A stretch of 32,591 nucleotides of DNA, taken from assembly GCA_048884965.1 (NCBI GenBank), contig JBHLQH010000036.1, positions 1-32,591 on the forward strand. Reading direction: 5' to 3'. The stretch's first letter is position 1, and every line of letters starts with the position of its first letter. This document shows, one piece after another, positions 6,875-16,881 of this stretch. The stretch comes from Candidatus Thorarchaeota archaeon. GTDB taxonomy: Archaea > Asgardarchaeota > Thorarchaeia > Thorarchaeales > Thorarchaeaceae. The translations under genes and the position numbers were made by a program. Below the pieces are notes generated by a model. That model was not told where the DNA came from. It saw only the letters and a list, made by a program, of their open reading frames with translations, and did no database searches.

Positions 6875-9676
6875 TCATGATCGCCTCTCGAAGTTGTTTC
6901 TTTCTTCATTGATTTCCGCTACGGATTTGGAAAGGGTATCCCTGTTTTCTGCTGCTCCAACTACATACACAATTAGGCCTGTAAGAACACATAATCCTAT
7001 CAAATAGATGGCAATCGGCAGTACGGGTACCACTGTCAATATTGGGATTGGATATGCAGAGTAGGCAGTAGAGCTTGCTAGCATGAGTATCACAAACGAA
7101 TTCTGAAGAAACAGTGGCATACTTAGCAGGAGAAGAAACACTCCATGCAGGGTGAGCACATGTATCTCAATTTGATGAGCCGCCTTAAGATCTATGGGTG
7201 AAGCACCTAGTATTTGGAGGATAGAATCGTCTCGTCTTCTGCTCTCTTTTCCACTATACACATAGCTTAGATAGACACTTGGGAGAGCTATAATGACACA
7301 AAACAATACCATTGTATCGATAGCGCTTTCGAATACATATTCGCTTTCTGTAAGAATTCTCGCCGCATATTCCGATGCTGATGCATATCCGAATATGACA
7401 TCGCCCGGATTACATGCAAAAAGGGAATCTATCACTGCTCCTCCACTGACTTGGTCTGAGATGCGGGCGCATAGGAAAACACCATTGGCAAAAGCATCTT
7501 TGATCAGTCCTTGCTCATAGTCGTTTGAAACCCAAACTCTGCCTTTCCCAACTAAGAATTCTCCTGCTCCTACCTGAGGTGGATCATATCCCCTCCCAGT
7601 CACCATTGTATCCGGTAGGCATGTTACTACTTTTAGCAGATTGAATGTAATAGATATGACCTCTGTACCGTTGCTCCTAAATGCTCTGAGAAGGTCTCCT
7701 TCATCGAGTTCATACGTATCGGCTAGGTCTGAGGTAATAATTGCTCCTGCTGGATTCTCATCAAGAAGTGTGACGATTTCTGATAGATACGAGTTTTCAA
7801 GGGGAATACCTGTTTCATCATAAGCCACGGAATCTATGTCATCGGTGTCTATCACGGCGAAATCCACTGTATCTAATAGACTTGAGGACAATGAATAGCT
7901 ATAGACGTTCACCATGGTCGTTGACACGACACCAGGAACTAGACTGAGATTCTCCCGAACATCATCGAACATATCATAAAAATCTGCATCCAAATTGAAT
8001 GCTACATCCCCACTAAGTGCGAAACGAGCGTGTCCTAGTGCAGTATTTGGCAGAGTTGCATTTACAATGATGTTACTCCACATAAGACTTGTAACCAATG
8101 CAAAGACTAGAATCGTGAATCCTGATACTTTTCTATCCCGTCCAATTCTACGACCCCCGACTTCTGCGCCTATCCTTGGTAGGAACTTGCTAAGACCTTT
8201 TGATATATAGAATGAGCTTGTCTGGGCTGCCTTAGACAGCAGACTTGCAAGACCTATCATCAAAAAGACCGGTATCGTATATATTATTGCAGAAAATAGT
8301 GGTGTTCTTAGTATCTGGTTACCTACCTCCCAAAGCCCAAAAAGAAACCCAAAGGAGATTAGAACGACCAATGCATCCCATCGAAAGAATCGTAAGGCTC
8401 CAACAAAGCGTGCCAGCTTGCCAAGCTCGATATGTTCAGTATCTTTCTCTCGTGAACTGATACTGATTCCAGCAAAAGCAACCAAAGGTATGATGACTGC
8501 GTAAACAATGATGACTGCAAGTGACTCTAATGTAACAAGAACTGGCATCTCAGAAATCGATATGGTCCGGAGAACAAAGAAGCCCTCAGAAAGGAGCCCC
8601 ACACGACTGATAAGTATCCCCACACCAACTGATGCTGCAGCAGCCAGTAATGATAGTGAGAGAATTTCGCGAATCTTCACAAGAATAATCTGTCGGGATG
8701 ATGCTCCTCTTGCCAGTAGCAGCTCGGCTCTCTTTTCCTGTTTCTGTGAGTTGTAGCGAACAGTAGATACGGAAAGAATGACTCCAATAAAAATGGCAAT
8801 CTGTGATCTGATTAGCTGACTAGTCTTTGTTAATGCTGCTTTTTCGATATATCTTTGAATCCCTCTGCTTTGAATGTCATCCAATGAGAAAGTCGTGTGA
8901 TGAAACAGCTCATATTGAGGGTCCAGATAACGGACATCCTCCTCGATATCTGATAGATATGATAAGGCAGCCGCAGGCTGCAATGGGGACAGGAAATAGT
9001 CATTTACCTTTAGATAGGCATAATGCATTCGCTCTCTTTGACTAACGAATTCTGGCATAACAACAATATCACCAAGGTTGTAGTATGCATAATTTCTGTT
9101 ATCATCCTCCGGATGGTCAAATATGCCAACAACTCTGAAGAAGTGATACTCATGAACGAATCCGCTTTCAAATGTTACAATCGCTCCTAATTCAACCCCG
9201 TAAAAATCTATCAGCCATTGTGCCAGAGCGCACTCTATGTTCCTTGTTGGCCATCGTCCTTCAGTAATGTTGAATATTGATGGGAAATCTGTAAAGAGAT
9301 CCTGATTATTTTCGATGGCTGCAACTGTGAGATTGATATTCGGATCATGAGCTCCGCCACCCTGTGCGAGAGTGAATCCTTTTTCTGCCGTAGTCGTGGC
9401 ATTCTGATCTGGTGGGAATGCAACCAAAGAGCACCATGACTTCTCCATCTTGGCAACCCTCTCAATACCTGGGACACTCTCCAAGTCGTCCATAGAGGGA
9501 AGAACCTCTTCTGACTGCATGAACATGGTTGCAGGACCAACGTTAGTTTCGTAGTCCCAAGTATAGGTAGAGTATGAATCTAGGTAAATCAATAGACTGG
9601 CGAATATAATATTGGCTAGAATGAAGCATACCAGTGTTACTTGCTTTCGCCTCGATTCCTCCGACATTGAATTCAC
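6875..9676 (-). CDS. FtsX/MacB-like ABC transporter permease (paralog of the downstream gene)
   Basis: GRWPTRNIECAL (MacB periplasmic-core-like), ELLLARGASSRQI and RRRDDSILQILGAS (FtsX). Its stop codon directly abuts the ATG of 6874. Confidence 0.85.
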   Translation of the reverse strand: MNSMSEESRRKQVTLVCFILANIIFASLLIYLDSYSTYTWDYETNVGPATMFMQSEEVLPSMDDLESVPGIERVAKMEKSWCSLVAFPPDQNATTTAEKGFTLAQGGGAHDPNINLTVAAIENNQDLFTDFPSIFNITEGRWPTRNIECALAQWLIDFYGVELGAIVTFESGFVHEYHFFRVVGIFDHPEDDNRNYAYYNLGDIVVMPEFVSQRERMHYAYLKVNDYFLSPLQPAAALSYLSDIEEDVRYLDPQYELFHHTTFSLDDIQSRGIQRYIEKAALTKTSQLIRSQIAIFIGVILSVSTVRYNSQKQEKRAELLLARGASSRQIILVKIREILSLSLLAAAASVGVGILISRVGLLSEGFFVLRTISISEMPVLVTLESLAVIIVYAVIIPLVAFAGISISSREKDTEHIELGKLARFVGALRFFRWDALVVLISFGFLFGLWEVGNQILRTPLFSAIIYTIPVFLMIGLASLLSKAAQTSSFYISKGLSKFLPRIGAEVGGRRIGRDRKVSGFTILVFALVTSLMWSNIIVNATLPNTALGHARFALSGDVAFNLDADFYDMFDDVRENLSLVPGVVSTTMVNVYSYSLSSSLLDTVDFAVIDTDDIDSVAYDETGIPLENSYLSEIVTLLDENPAGAIITSDLADTYELDEGDLLRAFRSNGTEVISITFNLLKVVTCLPDTMVTGRGYDPPQVGAGEFLVGKGRVWVSNDYEQGLIKDAFANGVFLCARISDQVSGGAVIDSLFACNPGDVIFGYASASEYAARILTESEYVFESAIDTMVLFCVIIALPSVYLSYVYSGKESRRRDDSILQILGASPIDLKAAHQIEIHVLTLHGVFLLLLSMPLFLQNSFVILMLASSTAYSAYPIPILTVVPVLPIAIYLIGLCVLTGLIVYVVGAAENRDTLSKSVAEINEERNNFERRS

Positions 9677-9709: not shown

Positions 9710-10684
9710 TTAAGCACTCCGTTTTGCAGTCTTTTTGAATTTAGCACGAGCCTTTTCCACGAGGTCATCCTTTCTATCAACATAGGGGATAAATAGTTCT
9801 CCTATTTCCAGCAAACCAACATTGTAGTCGATGATATCTTTCATGGTAGTATTGATTTCAAAGCCAATATAATGTCTGAAGGCTCCCTTACATGCTACTG
9901 CTGTTGTAGCATTTCCCATGAATGGATCCAGAACTAAATCTCCCGGTCTCGTGGAAAAGTCTACACATCGCATTACTAGTTCTGTCGGAAGCTTCGTCCC
10001 ATTCTTCTTCTCTCCCTTCTTGTAAGTTCTATTGATGTCCCACACATCGAGAGGGTAATGCTCAATCTTGTTGAAGTAGTAATCTTTGGGGTGCTTTGCG
10101 AGAAAGAGCAAGTGATAATGACTTGTTACAAATTTCCTCTTCGTGAACACGCCGAATTGATATTTCCATATTATATGGTTAATAAGTGAAAGATTTACCT
10201 TATCAATCGCATCAAGGACCTGACGAAGGTTTGTCCATCCACTGAATATCCATGCAGTCCCTGTCCTTTTTAGGATGCGAGGAAGTTCCTTCATCCACCT
10301 TATGGTGAAGGTATCATAGTCTTCTTCTATCTCATGATATCCTTCTGCAACAAGAGAATCATCTCGGTTATAGATTGCTTCCTTTCCGGTGAAAGATATC
10401 CCAAAAGGAGGATCTGCGATAATAACATCAACAGACTCAGTTGGAAGTTGCTTCATGCCTTTAATGCAATCTTGATAGTGTATCCTATCAACAGGAAAGG
10501 AGAATTCACGAGATCTATAGATTTGGCGGGCCTCCTCTTTTGTCCAATCCTCCGTTGGTTCAAACTCAGCAGCTGCCCTATGAGGAATATAGCGTGTCTT
10601 ACGCTTCTTTTTACTTCCGGATTCGGGATTCACATTGATACCCTCTAGGATGCTGCATATAAGAATCACTGGTGAATTGGTCAT
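9710..10684 (-). CDS. Site-specific DNA methyltransferase, N6-adenine/N4-cytosine, beta class
   Basis: Motif IV SVDVIIADPPF precedes motif I GDLVLDPFMGNATT; also DCIKGMKQL, TKLPTELV and YIGFEIN. Alternative start is GTG 10633, preceded by GAGG. Confidence 0.9.
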   Translation of the reverse strand: MTNSPVILICSILEGINVNPESGSKKKRKTRYIPHRAAAEFEPTEDWTKEEARQIYRSREFSFPVDRIHYQDCIKGMKQLPTESVDVIIADPPFGISFTGKEAIYNRDDSLVAEGYHEIEEDYDTFTIRWMKELPRILKRTGTAWIFSGWTNLRQVLDAIDKVNLSLINHIIWKYQFGVFTKRKFVTSHYHLLFLAKHPKDYYFNKIEHYPLDVWDINRTYKKGEKKNGTKLPTELVMRCVDFSTRPGDLVLDPFMGNATTAVACKGAFRHYIGFEINTTMKDIIDYNVGLLEIGELFIPYVDRKDDLVEKARAKFKKTAKRSA

Positions 10685-11367
10685 TGGAAAACATGCAACA
10701 TTGCCCTATTTCTCTTACCTCTGGTTCGGAGAATCTTCATCTTTCTTAGACAGTACGTGATCTTTTGTGCAATCCGCCTTGTACACCCAAGAGCCATTGC
10801 CAACTCTGTACTCGTGAATGGAACTACTAGGTCAGGAGGTAGTAATCCTACAAGATCCTGAGGGGTGGTGAACAAATGTCTTTCAGCGACATCGATTAAG
10901 CGACGGTCTACAACACTCCATCCTTTTCGTTTCCAGCTGCCTTTGCCATCTTTTTGCATGACTTGCTCTTCAAACACCTCAAGTACTTCAAGCTCGAAGT
11001 TGTGATGGACGAGTATTGTAGGGATACTAACGAGTTCCTCAAAGACCGCCAGCACATTGGAAGTCTTAGGTGATTTCCTCCTGCTGATCTCAGTGCCATC
11101 CAAACCTTCTCTGACTACCCACCTTACCCTGGGTACTGGATGAACAAGTCTAATCCGATGATTCGGAATCAATGCCATGAGCTTATCCTTCAGTGCTCCA
11201 AAGTTCCTAGTTTGAATCTCAATTAGGAGACCTTCTCTTACGATGTCGATCACATATCCCTCTACTTGAACCTCGAGTTCGTCCTCTGGTCTTCGATACC
11301 ATTCTTTCAGACTTGCATGAAGTGACCTCTCTGAGAGTGTGCCAATTCCAAAGTCCTCAGAAGACAT
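10681..11367 (-). CDS. PD-(D/E)XK-superfamily nuclease-like protein with C-terminal wHTH
   Basis: ERSLHASLK...EVQVEGYVIDIV...LIEIQT matches an E..H / D / ExQ variant of the restriction-endonuclease-like fold. C-terminal FTSTELAMALGCTRRIAQKITYCLRKM is HTH-like. Confidence 0.65.
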   Translation of the reverse strand: MSSEDFGIGTLSERSLHASLKEWYRRPEDELEVQVEGYVIDIVREGLLIEIQTRNFGALKDKLMALIPNHRIRLVHPVPRVRWVVREGLDGTEISRRKSPKTSNVLAVFEELVSIPTILVHHNFELEVLEVFEEQVMQKDGKGSWKRKGWSVVDRRLIDVAERHLFTTPQDLVGLLPPDLVVPFTSTELAMALGCTRRIAQKITYCLRKMKILRTRGKRNRAMLHVFQ

Positions 11368-11934: not shown

Positions 11935-11977
11935 ATAAAAAAACAGAGCGGAGGTCTCTTTGGAGAATCGAGACCTC
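11935..11977 (-). terminator. Hairpin plus oligo-U terminator of the tusA-dsrE-iscS-iscU operon
   Basis: Perfect 8-bp stem GAGGTCTC/GAGACCTC (11951-11958 / 11970-11977) just after the iscU stop, followed on the minus strand by T7. Confidence 0.7.
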
Positions 11978-11985
11978 GTCACATT

Positions 11986-12765
11986 CTATTCGATGATGAG
12001 GACTGCATCAACAAAGAGCTCGTAGTCTTCGTCCTCGTCAAGATTTCGAATCAAGACCTTCTCTACCTCATCGTCCCCCCTTATCTCAAGGAGTTTTGAT
12101 TCGTAGAGGACCTTCACAGATGAATTTTCTAATTCCTGTTTCAATTCTTCTGTTGTAATGATTTCCTTCTCTGGAGTCAGGAGTATGACACGATCGGTCA
12201 CATCAGTTAGCTCTAAGGCCGCATCTATAGATTCATCCCCTGAATGTAGCACCAAGGTTCTCATATCTCTGAAGGGCTCTGTGTTTTCTACAGAGAGAAA
12301 TACGCCTTTATCTAGGAACTCATCCTGACCTATTAGGCAAACGGATTCGCTCGCGCGCTCCTCAGTTTCTTCCTCGACAAGCTCTCCTCGCCCTTTTCTA
12401 TAGCTCTTGATGGCTTCGTGTAAGGCATCAGCAGCAAGATTCGAGCAGTGCATCTTGATTGGCGGAAGTCCATCGAGCTCGTCGGCAACATCTTGCCTTG
12501 TGAGTTTCATGGCTTCATCTAGTGTCATCCCTACAACCATCTCAGTTGTCATACTCGTCGTAGCGATGGCTGAACCACATCCAAATGTTCTGAACCTTGC
12601 TTCAGTTATCTTGTCGTCATCTATTCTGATGAACATCTCCATAATGTCGCCACATGTAGGATTTCCAACCTTGCCGTAGGCAACATCGTCCCCTTCTAGT
12701 GTACCAACATTCCTTGGATTACGAAAGTGGTCGAGGACTTTTTCCGAATACTTTGTTGATTTCAT
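11986..12765 (-). CDS. iscU: Fe-S cluster scaffold IscU/NifU-N fused to a degenerate thioredoxin-reductase-like NAD(P)-binding domain
   Basis: YSEKVLDHFRNPRNVG, GNPTCGD (C38, D40), FGCGSAIA (C63), LPPIKMHCS (H106, C107). Residues ~143-259 resemble the TrxB NADPH domain (GQDEFLDKGV...IRGDDEVEKVLIRN...ELFVDAVLI). Confidence 0.9.
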   Translation of the reverse strand: MKSTKYSEKVLDHFRNPRNVGTLEGDDVAYGKVGNPTCGDIMEMFIRIDDDKITEARFRTFGCGSAIATTSMTTEMVVGMTLDEAMKLTRQDVADELDGLPPIKMHCSNLAADALHEAIKSYRKGRGELVEEETEERASESVCLIGQDEFLDKGVFLSVENTEPFRDMRTLVLHSGDESIDAALELTDVTDRVILLTPEKEIITTEELKQELENSSVKVLYESKLLEIRGDDEVEKVLIRNLDEDEDYELFVDAVLIIE

Positions 12766-13947
12766 TTACTTTACCCCCGTTGTTTCTGATTGTGTATAGA
12801 TTGGTGAAAGTTCACGAAGACGTGTAACTATCGGCGGTACCGCTTCAAGTACCGCATCGATGTCAGATTCCTCGTTGTATCTACCAGTAGTAATCTGTAG
12901 CGAACCATGGGCTTCCTCATGCAATAGACCTGTTGCAATGAGGGTATGGGATGGCTCGAGAGTCTTTGATGTACATGCTGAACCAGTTGAGATGGCGATG
13001 TTCTTGTCCTTGAACATTAGTAAGATTGACTCTCCTTCAATACCATCAAATCTAAAGTGCGAATTGCTGGCAAGGCGATCGATAGGATGCCCGTTTAGGT
13101 GGCTGTCAGGGATCTCAAGTATTGTATCGATTATTCTTCTCTGCCACCTCCTATATCTTGAAACTTCAGACTCCATTTCTTCATCCATTATTTGCGCAGC
13201 CTTTGCCATGCCCACAATGGATGCCATGTCTTCCGTTCCTGATCTGATACCTTTCTCCTGTCCGCCTCCCATCATGACTGGATTGACTCTAAACTTCTTC
13301 TGCATGAACAGAACACCAAGACCCTTCGGTCCGTAGATATCATTAGAGGAGAGAGACATCAAGTTGATTTTGTCCCGTTCAACGTCTATCGGAACCAGTC
13401 CCTCTGCAGCGACAGCATCTGAATGGAACGCGATTCCTTTCTCCTCTGCCAATTCTCCTATTGCCTTTACGTTCTGGATTGTACCAATCTCATTACTCGC
13501 GTAGCCAATTGATAGCAAGATGGTTTCATCCTTGATGCGTTTCTCTAACTTGGTCAGCTTCACTCGCCCATATTGGTCCACAGGGACCTTAGAAACCTCA
13601 AACCCATTCTGAGTTAGATACTTGGCAATATTATGTATCGACACATGTTCGATTTCGGATATAATCACATGATTTCCTTTTCTCTTGTTCTTCAACGCAT
13701 ATCCAACTATACCGAGGTTATTTGCCTCAGTTGCACCAGATGTGAAGATAATGTCATCAGAATCAGCATTTATGAATCTGGCAATCTTTTCTCTGCTTGC
13801 CTCCAGCGCATCGGTTGCCACATCACCTACCTTGTGGAGCGATGACGGGTTGCCGAATCTCTCGGTGAACCATGGTAGCATTTCTTCTACTACTCGAGAA
13901 TCGACTGGTTTTGCAGTGTGATAATCCAGGTAAATTTGTTTGTCCAA
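12766..13947 (-). CDS. iscS: IscS/NifS-family protein with the PLP-lysine position replaced by Asp
   Basis: IYLDY, FGNPSSLH, FTSGATEANN, SNEIGTIQ, GGGQEKGIRSGT and STGSACTS (C325) are present. SLSSNDIYGPKG replaces the canonical S-x-H-K-x-Y-G-P-K-G. Confidence 0.92.
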   Translation of the reverse strand: MDKQIYLDYHTAKPVDSRVVEEMLPWFTERFGNPSSLHKVGDVATDALEASREKIARFINADSDDIIFTSGATEANNLGIVGYALKNKRKGNHVIISEIEHVSIHNIAKYLTQNGFEVSKVPVDQYGRVKLTKLEKRIKDETILLSIGYASNEIGTIQNVKAIGELAEEKGIAFHSDAVAAEGLVPIDVERDKINLMSLSSNDIYGPKGLGVLFMQKKFRVNPVMMGGGQEKGIRSGTEDMASIVGMAKAAQIMDEEMESEVSRYRRWQRRIIDTILEIPDSHLNGHPIDRLASNSHFRFDGIEGESILLMFKDKNIAISTGSACTSKTLEPSHTLIATGLLHEEAHGSLQITTGRYNEESDIDAVLEAVPPIVTRLRELSPIYTQSETTGVK

Positions 13948-13959
13948 TCACATCCACCC

Positions 13960-14313
13960 CTAGAACCACATTGTGGTATCTGCTTCTAGGGCAAGGTCAT
14001 TCAAGGTTGCAGCGCCAACGATTTTCAAAGCGGGGTCAAGCTCCACTTTATCCCATCCTAGCATCCGTTTTGATGCCTCACAAACATATATGGGGATTCC
14101 CATGCTAATTGTCTGTTTAATGATGTCTGCTAAACTTGGGAAGTCGCCTGCTTTGATCTTTTCAGCTGCCCCCGGCTGAAGGATTCGTAGGGCTTGTCCC
14201 AAAAAGTAGACCTTTGCATCGATATCCATTGCTTTCGCGCTTTGAGCGAGCACAAATGGAGAATACTGACGCTCTGGGTCATCACTTGTCTGTACATATA
14301 ATATCGAACTCAT
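13960..14313 (-). CDS. DsrE/TusD-like sulfur-carrier protein
   Basis: 117 aa; VYFLGQAL and GIPIYVCEAS with a single Cys78 at the DsrE/TusD active position; C-terminal GAATLNDLALEADTTMWF typical of DsrE-like proteins. Confidence 0.85.
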   Translation of the reverse strand: MSSILYVQTSDDPERQYSPFVLAQSAKAMDIDAKVYFLGQALRILQPGAAEKIKAGDFPSLADIIKQTISMGIPIYVCEASKRMLGWDKVELDPALKIVGAATLNDLALEADTTMWF

Positions 14314-14319
14314 TTCTCA

Positions 14320-14562
14320 CTACTCCTTTCTTCTCAATAGGAATCTCTGTACGCCATCGTCCATCTTCTCATAGCTGATTAGGATATGTCCCGTTCTTTT
14401 TGCGAATCGTTTGATGTCTTCTTCTGCCGCTGGATCATCAGCCAGCAGCTCTAGGACCTGTCCTGGCGCTAGCTGATCGATTGCTTCTCTCGTCTGAAAG
14501 AGTGGTTGTGGACAGTATAATCCGACACAGTCTATTGTTTCGTCTGGCTCTACAGGTTTCAT
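14320..14562 (-). CDS. tusA: TusA/SirA-family sulfur carrier
   Basis: IDCVGLYCPQP (CPxP motif), GQVLELLADDPAAEEDI, and C-terminal FLLRR. Confidence 0.92.
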   Translation of the reverse strand: MKPVEPDETIDCVGLYCPQPLFQTREAIDQLAPGQVLELLADDPAAEEDIKRFAKRTGHILISYEKMDDGVQRFLLRRKE

Positions 14563-14651
14563 CTCAATTCCACTATCAATTGTTTCTCAGTAATTCATTA
14601 TAGTTAATTCGCTTATAATCTTATGGAAGTTGCTAAGGCATCTCCATGCTA

Positions 14652-15755
14652 CTATATGGTGGCGAACTCGAAAAATCGTTCAATTATTTTATCAAACTCC
14701 TTGCTAGTCTTCTTCTCGACATAATCTATCTGACTGAGTTGATAGTATCTTTCAAACGAATCAATTGAAAGCCTCAGAAGCTTCCTTGTCAATTCTGAAC
14801 TTTGGCGAGCAATCAAGATGCCATATGTATGGATGCCCTCTTGTACAATCATCTCTTGGTCTCCTACAAGGATACTCTCAACCTCACCTTTTCCTAACGT
14901 ATGCTTGACAAAATGCTTGATCCCTGTGAAGAAGGCTGAGAGAATCTCCAATCCTTCAACTCTTCCAACTTTGAACTTGAAGTGATAGAGTGGTAGACCG
15001 CTATCTTGCTTGATGATATACAGCTCGCTGATTTCCTGTGCTCCTATGAATAGGATTGTTGGATGCTTGTGAAACAAGATTGTAGCGAGAAGCACAAAAA
15101 GAGCGATATCAAGGACGAGTGCTGATGGATGGAATAGAGGTAGAAAAACAGGTGGCATGATAGTATGAACTGGTTGGACTATCAAGATGCTTGAGGTGAA
15201 TACAATTGTTGACCAGAATAAGACCTTGATCATGGTATCCTTCTGGAAGAAGCTCCATAGCCGTCTGTAGAGCCTTATTCCAAGAGGTATTGCAGATATC
15301 ACGACGGTTGAAAATAGAATAAACCGTCCGAATTCGAATTCCATCGAGTAGTCAACTACCCATCCAAACGATGTCCAAGAGACTGAAATGGCTGGGGGTG
15401 AGAATGTTCCCACTATGAGACCTCCTGAGAAGAGGAATGCTATGTTTGTCAACATCGATCTACTATCACTCTTGACACTCTCCATTGCGGAAATCATTAA
15501 GCCAAGAGCTAGGAATCCAAATGGTCGCAGGAAGTACTGAGATCCTCTGATGACAGCATAGTACTCTGGAGCGCTGAGAAGTCCCATCAGCAGAGAGGGT
15601 ATCGTCCACATCACAATGCATGTCGAAAATCCATTCGCGTATTGATAGAATCTGGTTCCAATAGTATTGTACAACCGCCGTGTTTGATACACTGAAACAA
15701 GACTTATGCTCAATAGACTGATTGCTGCAAGAGTCATCTGCATATCAACTGCCAT
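14652..15755 (-). CDS. 7TM membrane protein with C-terminal longin-like domain
   Basis: Seven hydrophobic segments in residues ~7-228, then LYIIKQDSGLPLYHFKF...LSAFFTGIKHFVKHTL...VESILVGDQEMIVQEGIHTYGILIA...LRLSIDSFERYY...FDKIIERFF (beta-beta-alpha-beta-beta-beta-alpha-alpha pattern). Confidence 0.72.
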   Translation of the reverse strand: MAVDMQMTLAAISLLSISLVSVYQTRRLYNTIGTRFYQYANGFSTCIVMWTIPSLLMGLLSAPEYYAVIRGSQYFLRPFGFLALGLMISAMESVKSDSRSMLTNIAFLFSGGLIVGTFSPPAISVSWTSFGWVVDYSMEFEFGRFILFSTVVISAIPLGIRLYRRLWSFFQKDTMIKVLFWSTIVFTSSILIVQPVHTIMPPVFLPLFHPSALVLDIALFVLLATILFHKHPTILFIGAQEISELYIIKQDSGLPLYHFKFKVGRVEGLEILSAFFTGIKHFVKHTLGKGEVESILVGDQEMIVQEGIHTYGILIARQSSELTRKLLRLSIDSFERYYQLSQIDYVEKKTSKEFDKIIERFFEFATI

Positions 15756-16881
15756 CCATCAAAGCCTCCTGTTTCGGTTGATGCCTATGGATTGCAAATT
15801 GAAAGAGATTTTCAATTTCTAATGAGAACCTCTCAAAATCTTTGATGTCTTTTTCCGCAAATGAAGATTCAAAGATCTGCAACGATTTCAGAAGCAATCT
15901 ATACGAGAGTAAAGAACCTCTATTGGTAAGCAACAAGCCATGGTATCTATCTCCCTCTGCAACTAGAATTTCGATATCTTCGACTCGGATGCTTTTAACA
16001 CTTCCCGGTTTTTCAAGCGCATCATTGAACACCTGTTGAATACTTGACTGTGCTATTGGGATTCCCATCAAGTCAGATATCGTGTCTTCTGAGTGAAACC
16101 TGTATCGGTATGCTATATCATGAGTAGTTCTCTCTACAAACAGGACTTCGAAGATGTCATAGCTTGACGCAAAGAAGATTGTTGGGTATATAGTAAGCAA
16201 TCGCGCAATGATCCCAGTAAAACCAGCAATCAGAATCATGAACAAGTAGTAGTTCGCACTAAATGGAAGAATATGGATTCCAAATGTAACTGAAATTATC
16301 ATGAATGATCCGAAGAACAGAAGAACTGCCATGAATCCTGCAAAGAGGATTGTCCCCTCACTCCCATAGATCGCCATCTTTCGAATCCTTCGCGCCACTT
16401 CAATCACAATTGGTCCTAGTACAATGCAAAGAAAAAAGAATTCCAAGATAGATAGTCCGATTACATAGGAGCCATAACTTTGCTGCCAGCCTATACCGGT
16501 CCATTCAACTAGATATTGACTAGGTATAAACCGGCTTGCAATAAGGCCCCCTGACAGTATAAATGCTGCATTGATAATCGATTCATTTGGGGTTTTCTTA
16601 ACATATTCAATAGCATGCACCAGAAAGGCAAGAGCGAGCAATCCGAATGATGCCATGAATAGCTGACCTGAGGTAACGAACTGCTCATAATCCTCTGCGG
16701 AGAATAATGCTGGGAAGTAGTATCCTAGGACCATTAAGCAAACACAGGCATAGGCATATGTTGCATACTGGAAGAATTGTGTCTTCAGGTCTAAATAGAG
16801 ACAATATGATATCCGCGTAGCGTAAAGACTAAGTAAAAGCGCTCCTGTTATCAGAATGATTCCGTACGGGTCAACGTTCAC
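15745..16881 (-). CDS. 7TM membrane protein with C-terminal longin-like domain (diverged paralog)
   Basis: Seven TM segments. Shares FxQYA, FGxLAL, NxAFxxSGGLI, WTxxGWxxxY, PTI and VxSIxVxDxExxVxEGxxxxGxL motifs with the downstream gene, which it overlaps by 11 nt. Confidence 0.7.
   Translation of the reverse strand: MNVDPYGIILITGALLLSLYATRISYCLYLDLKTQFFQYATYAYACVCLMVLGYYFPALFSAEDYEQFVTSGQLFMASFGLLALAFLVHAIEYVKKTPNESIINAAFILSGGLIASRFIPSQYLVEWTGIGWQQSYGSYVIGLSILEFFFLCIVLGPIVIEVARRIRKMAIYGSEGTILFAGFMAVLLFFGSFMIISVTFGIHILPFSANYYLFMILIAGFTGIIARLLTIYPTIFFASSYDIFEVLFVERTTHDIAYRYRFHSEDTISDLMGIPIAQSSIQQVFNDALEKPGSVKSIRVEDIEILVAEGDRYHGLLLTNRGSLLSYRLLLKSLQIFESSFAEKDIKDFERFSLEIENLFQFAIHRHQPKQEALMDGS

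Follow-up and report, generated by a model that had tools for sequence, protein, structure and literature searches.

Sulfur carriers TusA and DsrE are linked to a lysine-less IscS-IscU pair in a Thorarchaeotal operon

The window analysed here is a 32,591-nucleotide stretch (positions 1 to 32,591) of contig JBHLQH010000036.1 of a Candidatus Thorarchaeota archaeon (assembly GCA_048884965.1), which carries the genes tusA, dsrE, iscS* and iscU in one operon. IscS* is an IscS homologue of the MisS type in which the catalytic lysine is replaced, and TusA and DsrE are members of two families of sulfur carriers. Comparisons across Asgard genomes and metagenomes showed that the linkage of tusA, with or without dsrE, to lysine-less IscS is real and specific, and that the gene arrangement tusA-dsrE-iscS*-iscU is conserved far above chance. 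The reading favoured here, with a probability of roughly 0.55, is that the carriers feed persulfide sulfur into an IscS*-IscU machinery of the MIS type whose IscS* can probably no longer take sulfur from cysteine. The ND-type IscS itself (named after its SSND motif) is real and already known from Archaeoglobus fulgidus, and a lysine-less IscS is also known in IscS1 of Methanosarcina acetivorans. TusA and DsrE are an unrecognised accessory layer on this known machinery and not a new kind of machinery.

Association of the carriers with lysine-less IscS

The Asgard locus set comprises 16 loci with sequence upstream of an ND-type iscS. In all 16, tusA lies directly upstream, and in nine of them dsrE stands in between. 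When 40 TusA regions were taken from 19 Asgard genomes, every TusA-adjacent IscS in these genomes proved to be lysine-less (18/18; 17 ND and one NS). A metagenome set of 82 loci, in which lysine-bearing and lysine-less enzymes are mixed, was obtained from an IscS alignment scan and two contig look-ups, and TusA was scored as adjacent when it was encoded on the same strand at a distance of up to 2.5 kb. TusA is adjacent in 21 of the 33 lysine-less loci (12 of which also have DsrE) versus none of the 49 lysine-bearing ones. Restricted to loci with adequate flanks, the comparison gives 21 positive and 4 negative lysine-less loci versus 0/27 for the lysine-bearing loci; the lysine-less loci negative for TusA are mostly cut by contig ends. 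An earlier note on this DNA, made from the sequence alone, had suggested checking whether ND-type iscS co-occurs with tusA and dsrE across genomes, and these counts bear out the co-occurrence, with or without dsrE.

In the IscS tree, the lysine-less enzymes with carriers fall mainly into two clades. The ND/SA clade (15 sequences) is archaeal and has the order tusA-(dsrE)-iscS-iscU. The 'x-Q' clade (21 sequences) mostly has the order iscS-iscU-dsrE-tusA, and its NQ core belongs to Chloroflexota/Dehalococcoidales. The tree also contains two long-branch singletons and a small HL/HM group without TusA. Two deep lysine-less clades in two domains of life keep the carriers, in different gene orders, whereas the active IscS clades do not.

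The HL/HM group is represented in the metagenome set by loci L098, L099 and L116, a TusA-less clade that matches a second iscS-iscU pair of the present genome (G000:C24:35033-36699, G000 being this genome). In that pair GHL replaces GHK, the IscU is a normal one of 130 residues, and no tusA or dsrE lies nearby. Directly upstream of the pair is an open reading frame (ORF) of 156 aa with a Cys-rich C-terminus.

Features of the four proteins

IscS* has the type I class-V aminotransferase fold with a flexible-loop cysteine, as shown by its Aminotran_5 match and by its best match in the PDB, chain 4EB5_A, the A. fulgidus IscS2 of the IscS-IscU complex (full-length, E 2.7e-132). The lysine that forms the Schiff base with pyridoxal phosphate (PLP) is replaced by Asp203. 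In the alignment, the IscS* segment SSNDIYGPKG faces ssndiygpkg in 4EB5 and ssnkiygpkg in 4R5F, the D199K variant, whereas active enzymes have S-x-H-K. The ND motif is present in 19/19 Asgard IscS homologues that cover the site. The loop cysteine, Cys325 in GSACTS (S-x-G-S-A-C-x-S type), is invariant in 18 sequences. The A. fulgidus enzyme is without desulfurase activity, and its loop cysteine is the fourth ligand of the [2Fe-2S] cluster on IscU (PMC7585200; PMC8918507). It binds pyridoxamine phosphate (PMP) rather than PLP, and how assembly can do without a desulfurase is treated as an unsolved point, for which sulfide has been put forward as the sulfur source (PMC8918507). By analogy with this enzyme, and with the Schiff-base lysine absent, IscS* is probably unable to take sulfur from cysteine, which agrees with the earlier expectation that this IscS would be unlikely to mobilise cysteine sulfur.

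TusA belongs by its full-length Pfam match to the family with a two-layered alpha/beta domain. It carries the motif D-C12-x-G-x-x-C17-P-x-P with the catalytic cysteine in C-P-x-P, and its best PDB match is Escherichia coli TusA (1DCJ / 3LVJ_C, 3.4e-13). In the alignment C17-P-Q-P is invariant and C12 is conserved in at least 90%. Within the Asgard genomes, the two-cysteine motif DCxGxxCPxP occurs in 15/21 IscS-adjacent TusA proteins versus 2/26 non-adjacent ones; it also occurs in nearly all TusA proteins of the bacterial lysine-less clade. The position of the second cysteine is taken by Ala, Leu or Thr in four cassettes, so the motif is not universal. The IscS-adjacent TusA proteins form a subtype, marked by an additional cysteine five residues ahead of the catalytic cysteine. 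That C12 acts as a resolving thiol is speculation. The gene content of relatives makes it doubtful that the operon TusA is unique in the genome. One contig opens with a DsrE paralogue (G000:C10:410-796), whose ortholog in relatives is divergent from a tusA of a second type (FDASGLRCPMP). Such a second tusA was probably lost here in an assembly gap beside C10:410-796.

DsrE has a single cysteine, Cys78 in VCEASK, which is invariant among 10 homologues. Its nearest solved structure is 3MC3, Sulfolobus solfataricus SSO1125 (a weak match, 2e-09), which is classed as DsrE3A type (PMC11094781). In vitro, proteins of the DsrE3 type pick up polysulfide sulfur and act as its donors to TusA (PMC11094781). 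The operon DsrE belongs to the same fold family and has the single cysteine, and a structure of the DsrE3A type is its nearest one at 2e-09 only. Elsewhere in the genome, three adjoining small DsrE-family ORFs (123, 120 and 101 aa; G000:C72:2698-3742) have a DsrEFH/TusBCD-like arrangement. The YeeE/YedE thiosulfate importer was considered as a partner of TusA, and the genome yielded none; the surroundings of the operon are free of shdr and dsr genes.

The first ~125 residues of IscU form a standard IscU with all cluster ligands, sharing 64% identity with 7C8M (Methanothrix IscU) and 57% with 4EB5_C in Foldseek comparisons. The ligands C38, D40, C63 and C107, three cysteines and one aspartate, are invariant. 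In the AlphaFold2 (AF2) model, an acidic disordered linker is followed by a confident fold at residues ~145-259 (predicted local distance difference test 85-93), whose Foldseek matches are the NADPH domains of the thioredoxin reductases (TrxR) 2ZBW, 3F8D and 4ZN0 (~1e-11). Only the NADPH-domain fold is shared with TrxR; the tail has no flavin adenine dinucleotide (FAD) domain, no CxxC and no invariant cysteine, and its glycine motif is degenerate, reading HSGDES where TrxR has GxGxxA/G. The TrxR-like tail is conserved in Thorarchaeota-type cassettes (IscU of 257-263 aa) and absent from the other lysine-less cassettes (IscU of ~130 aa). It is treated here as a putative lineage-specific docking or structural module. 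In all, the cysteines of the four proteins are C12 and C17 in TusA, C78 alone in DsrE, C325 alone in IscS*, and C38, C63, C107 and C143 in IscU.

Sulfur supply and direction of flow

Searches of this genome, which is 95.7% complete, found no SufB/D (PF01458). The SufB of a family relative has no tblastn match in the genome, and the SufC of that relative matches only generic ABC ATPases. The neighbourhood of serS, where sufBC resides in a family relative, is contiguous here and without sufBC. SufBD is likewise absent from 6/6 congeners, bar a 103-aa C-terminal relic in one, and about half of the family has SufBD. The relic (L189:937-1245 in G005, of the same genus) corresponds to the C-terminal end of SufB/D only (profile positions 162-231) and is apparently a remnant of sufB. 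An assembly gap as the explanation of the SufBD absence was rejected on the congeners, tblastn and synteny. Among the 31 genomes sampled, every SufBD-negative one has TusA, and every TusA-negative one has SufBD. The NifU_N proteins of the genome are the two IscU only, and the IscS partners of both are without the lysine (ND in the operon, HL on C24). Since the genus has lost SufBC, the lysine-less IscS-IscU pairs are the only recognisable scaffolds in the genome and the genus, which argues for their being working assembly machines.

The genome nevertheless encodes a genuine, canonical cysteine desulfurase, SufS. Its gene (C37:7168-8152; L001/L169) is broken at 7301-7400 by a scaffold gap of 100 N, into which the part for the catalytic Cys loop falls. 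The ortholog in the congener G004 (L170:1501-2742, 413 aa) is intact and 90% identical; its motifs are SVHK and RSGAHC, and among PDB entries it matches Bacillus subtilis SufS best (1.4e-96). SufS is conserved in 26/31 relatives, and in the two SufS-less genomes that were checked a different group II enzyme occurs, which has the lysine and an HHC motif. No SufE, SufU or SufBD partner for SufS was found in the genome, and thus SufS needs another acceptor. In G030, a complete genome, the gene order of the operon is tusA-dsrE-iscS*(ND)-orf120-sufS, and at the metagenome locus L048 an SD-type iscS*-iscU pair is followed by a second class-V enzyme. The partner-less SufS raises the possibility of a hybrid route, in which the carriers would bring sulfur from SufS to IscS*-IscU.

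The 120-aa ORF between iscS* and sufS in G030 (L173:3713-4075) is without a Pfam match but shares homology (2e-18) with a portion of the 329-aa 'FeS'-domain protein (L048:2853-3839) that precedes iscS*-iscU in L048; its homology to a 386-aa Cys-rich protein of the present genome (G000:C54:1731-2888) is weak (6e-07). The latter is encoded just upstream of a gene, also on C54, for a protein with a metallo-beta-lactamase (MBL) and a double-rhodanese part. The family may be a further accessory of sulfur or iron-sulfur (Fe-S) trafficking.

The direction from the carriers to the scaffold is favoured because IscS* probably cannot make persulfide from cysteine, because the carriers accompany only an IscS that is presumably dead, and because DsrE3-type proteins take polysulfide sulfur and hand it to TusA in vitro (PMC11094781). 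We infer each step of the following relay. DsrE, probably a trimer, would take up sulfane sulfur on Cys78 and pass it to Cys17 of TusA. TusA would dock on IscS* as E. coli TusA does on IscS, and would persulfidate the loop Cys325 or IscU directly. IscS*-IscU would then build a [2Fe-2S] cluster held by C38, C63 and C107 of IscU and C325 of IscS*, as in the A. fulgidus structure. In the SufBC-less genus, the operon unit and the second lysine-less pair on C24 are the recognisable scaffolds. The solved E. coli IscS-TusA complex (3LVJ) provides a precedent for the docking, with E. coli TusA the top structural match of the operon TusA. A prediction of the IscS*-TusA complex (score 0.08, mark 0.32) informs neither way.

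The sulfur of the carriers could originate from the partner-less SufS acting on cysteine or from inorganic polysulfide or thiosulfate that reacts with DsrE/TusA, and the odds between the two are roughly even. The earlier note had proposed a reverse relay from DsrE/TusA to IscS*/IscU as a cysteine-independent system. The carrier-to-scaffold direction is favoured by the specificity of the linkage. The cysteine independence is not supported, as a canonical SufS is present and sufS is linked to the operon in G030. A canonical desulfurase that fully accounts for TusA loading had also been named as evidence that would speak against the proposal; a canonical desulfurase with the potential to load TusA is present and in some cases linked to the operon, which goes half of the way to such evidence. 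In a more far-reaching version, the carriers would load directly from inorganic sulfane sulfur (polysulfide, thiosulfate) of the environment or of metabolism, and C12, as a resolving thiol, would set sulfide free at the scaffold. Fe-S biogenesis would then be cysteine-independent in SufBC-less Asgard archaea and in the cassette-bearing Dehalococcoidia and methanogens. This version is tentative and rather doubtful; if true, it would define a distinct carrier-fed class of Fe-S assembly in a lineage related to the eukaryotic host.

Several observations weigh against the carriers being the sulfur donors of IscS*-IscU. The gene dsrE is missing from 7/16 Asgard cassettes and is thus not essential. 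The operon TusA is the sole TusA match in the assembly, a soft statement given the probable gap beside C10:410-796. Lysine status changes only about four times on the IscS tree, the association is phylogenetically clustered, and an independent-pairs test on the tree yields only 2-4 contrasts, with no power and no p-value. The raw Fisher test of lysine status versus TusA (p = 2e-11) therefore overstates the evidence, kin being non-independent, and is not relied on. The HL/HM lysine-less group, including the genome's own second pair on C24, is without TusA; lysine loss is not always accompanied by TusA. Finally, free sulfide could load IscU directly, as has been proposed for A. fulgidus (PMC8918507). 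An explanation built on this last point holds that free sulfide supplies IscS*-IscU, and it confines the two carriers to buffering, sensing or detoxifying reactive sulfane sulfur close to the scaffold, or to regulating the scaffold. It draws on the published hypothesis for the A. fulgidus pair, on the ability of SMS systems to use sulfide (PMC13066941), on the sulfidic sediments from which Thorarchaeota come according to the record titles, and on the dispensability of dsrE in those seven cassettes. However, it leaves unexplained the tight, specific tie of TusA to lysine-less IscS in two deep clades as well as the invariance of the catalytic CPxP cysteine of TusA, and we regard it as unlikely.

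Outward flow as in E. coli, in which IscS*-IscU or SufS would load TusA/DsrE for tRNA thiolation or for molybdopterin/thiamine synthesis and the clustering would serve co-regulation only, is quite unlikely. The solved IscS-TusA complex, the resemblance of the operon TusA to E. coli TusA above all others, and the DsrEFH/TusBCD-like trio at C72:2698-3742 are in keeping with it. However, IscS* probably cannot make persulfide from cysteine, no TusE/DsrC (PF04358) was found in the genome, and an acceptor TusA would be expected beside active IscS, where 0/49 lysine-bearing loci have one. It is more improbable still that the cassette is a specialised module for handling or sensing sulfane sulfur and not for general Fe-S assembly, with the IscU cluster as the sensor or the IscS* pocket binding another ligand. 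Such a role would fit the PMP bound in place of PLP by A. fulgidus IscS (PMC8918507), the odd IscU tails (TrxR-like here, a 24.2-kDa IscU1 in M. acetivorans) and the inconsistent detection of IscS1 and IscU1 in proteome data of M. acetivorans (PMC7585200). It is difficult to reconcile with the invariance of all IscU cluster ligands and of C325 of IscS*, and in a genus without SufBD some IscS*-IscU pair must do general assembly.

Locus organisation and relation to known systems

The four tightly packed minus-strand ORFs are separated by successive gaps of 6, 12 and 0 nt, the iscU start following directly on the iscS* stop (Table 1). By reading of the sequence, two TATA-like boxes were assigned 38-53 nt ahead of the tusA ATG. 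A GC-rich 8-bp hairpin follows 3' of iscU, in which 11977-11970 pairs with 11958-11951 across an 11-nt loop, with a run of seven T at 11943-11937. A scan for bacterial sigma-70 promoters and terminators is uninformative for an archaeon, and its terminator part missed the hairpin because of the 11-nt loop. The four same-strand genes with their gaps, the AT-rich upstream region, the terminator and the positions of the TusA, DsrE and IscS cysteines had all been described in the earlier note, and each was borne out by the ORF coordinates and sequences.

Table 1. Features of the operon and its flanks in the window
Feature	Coordinates	Strand	Description
tusA	14320..14562	-	80 aa; Pfam PF01206 5.8e-24, profile positions 1-70 of 70
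dsrE	13960..14313	-	117 aa; Pfam PF02635 1.1e-15
iscS* (MisS-type)	12766..13947	-	393 aa, TTG start; Pfam Aminotran_5 1.2e-68
iscU, whole ORF	11986..12765	-	259 aa; NifU_N 1.5e-47 and Pyr_redox fragment 8.2e-05
iscU scaffold domain, residues 1 to ~140	12340..12765	-	NifU_N; C38, D40, C63, C107, LPPIK
iscU C-terminal tail, ~residues 143-259	11986..12339	-	Pyr_redox 8.2e-05; predicted TrxR NADPH-domain fold
Intergenic promoter region, 89-nt spacer	14563..14651	-	TATA-like boxes by sequence reading
TATA-like box ATTATAAG	14619-14612	-	upstream of tusA; sequence reading
TATA-like box ACTATAAT	14604-14597	-	upstream of tusA; sequence reading
Terminator-like hairpin GAGGTCTC / GAGACCTC + T7	11937..11977	-	downstream of iscU; sequence reading

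The neighbours of the operon appear unrelated to it, a seven-transmembrane (7TM) paralogue pair upstream and a GNAT acetyltransferase downstream. The paralogues (window positions 14652-16881, minus strand; 367 and 378 aa) overlap each other, lie directly upstream on the same strand, and combine a multi-pass membrane part with a soluble C-terminal domain. The 367-aa protein, the only one of the two that was scanned, has no Pfam match. At 9710-11367 on the minus strand lies an N6/N4 DNA methylase (PF01555, 7.5e-37); the ORF before it, of 228 aa, overlaps it by 4 nt and has no Pfam match, and the two may be a restriction-modification or orphan methylase pair.

Comparison with the A. fulgidus IscS2-IscU structures (4EB5, 4EB7, 4HVK; D199K variant 4R5F) showed the same IscS subtype, the identical SSND and the same loop cysteine, which ligates the cluster together with three IscU residues. 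However, the published work treats that pair alone, whereas here the pair shares an operon with TusA and DsrE and the IscU has a TrxR-like tail. The closest described gene neighbourhood is the isc1 cluster of M. acetivorans (MA0806-MA0811; Deere et al. 2020, PMC7585200), which likewise has a lysine-less IscS1 (MA0808) and an enlarged 24.2-kDa IscU1 (MA0807), with the carriers present as a 'DrsE superfamily' protein (MA0809) and a 'SirA-like' (TusA) protein (MA0810). It differs in having a HIT protein, and in its genome an active IscS2 and two SufBC copies are present, which are lacking in the Thorarchaeotal genus. The six-gene neighbourhood of isc1 is drawn in a supplementary figure; in the text, the function of the extra genes is given as unknown, and that work left the cluster unstudied (PMC7585200). 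The MIS system (MisS/MisU; Garcia et al. 2022, as reviewed in PMC13066941) is summarised there as a two-gene IscS/IscU-like core of an anaerobic archaeon, without chaperones, ferredoxin or carrier proteins. The core is the same here, but to a system that the summary gives as two-component the lysine-less branch constantly adds two sulfur carriers. This 2026 review lists the sulfur source and the electron donor of MIS as unclear and leaves TusA and DsrE unmentioned in that account.

The relay IscS-TusA-TusBCD-TusE-MnmA of E. coli (3LVJ) has TusA and IscS of the same families and the CPxP cysteine in TusA. There, TusA receives sulfur from an active IscS for delivery to tRNA, whereas here IscS is probably inactive and the linkage points the other way. 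Neither IscS paralogue of the genome has the lysine, and the acceptor TusE/DsrC was not found in it; the TusBCD-like trio on C72 is present. In sulfur oxidisers (DsrE3A/TusA of Metallosphaera cuprina, DsrE3C of Hyphomicrobium; PMC11094781), a small single-cysteine DsrE adjoins TusA as it does here, but those pairs feed dissimilatory sHdr or rDsr oxidation, and the partners here are iscS*-iscU. Of the SUF/SMS systems, SufS alone is present, without the SufB/SufD scaffold.

Literature searches found no published interpretation of the TusA/DsrE link to a lysine-less IscS-IscU pair. What is newly added here is the loss of SufBC in the genus, the partner-less SufS with its operon link in G030, the two-cysteine signature of TusA, and the caution about phylogenetic independence. 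The conserved and specific link of TusA and DsrE names concrete candidates for the sulfur donor of the catalytically dead IscS-IscU of the A. fulgidus type. The question of sulfur supply can thereby be put to the test, either with a set of four small proteins or through the genetics available for M. acetivorans (MA0807-MA0810). The stakes are higher in this genus of Thorarchaeota, in which SufBC has been lost and both IscS copies are lysine-less.

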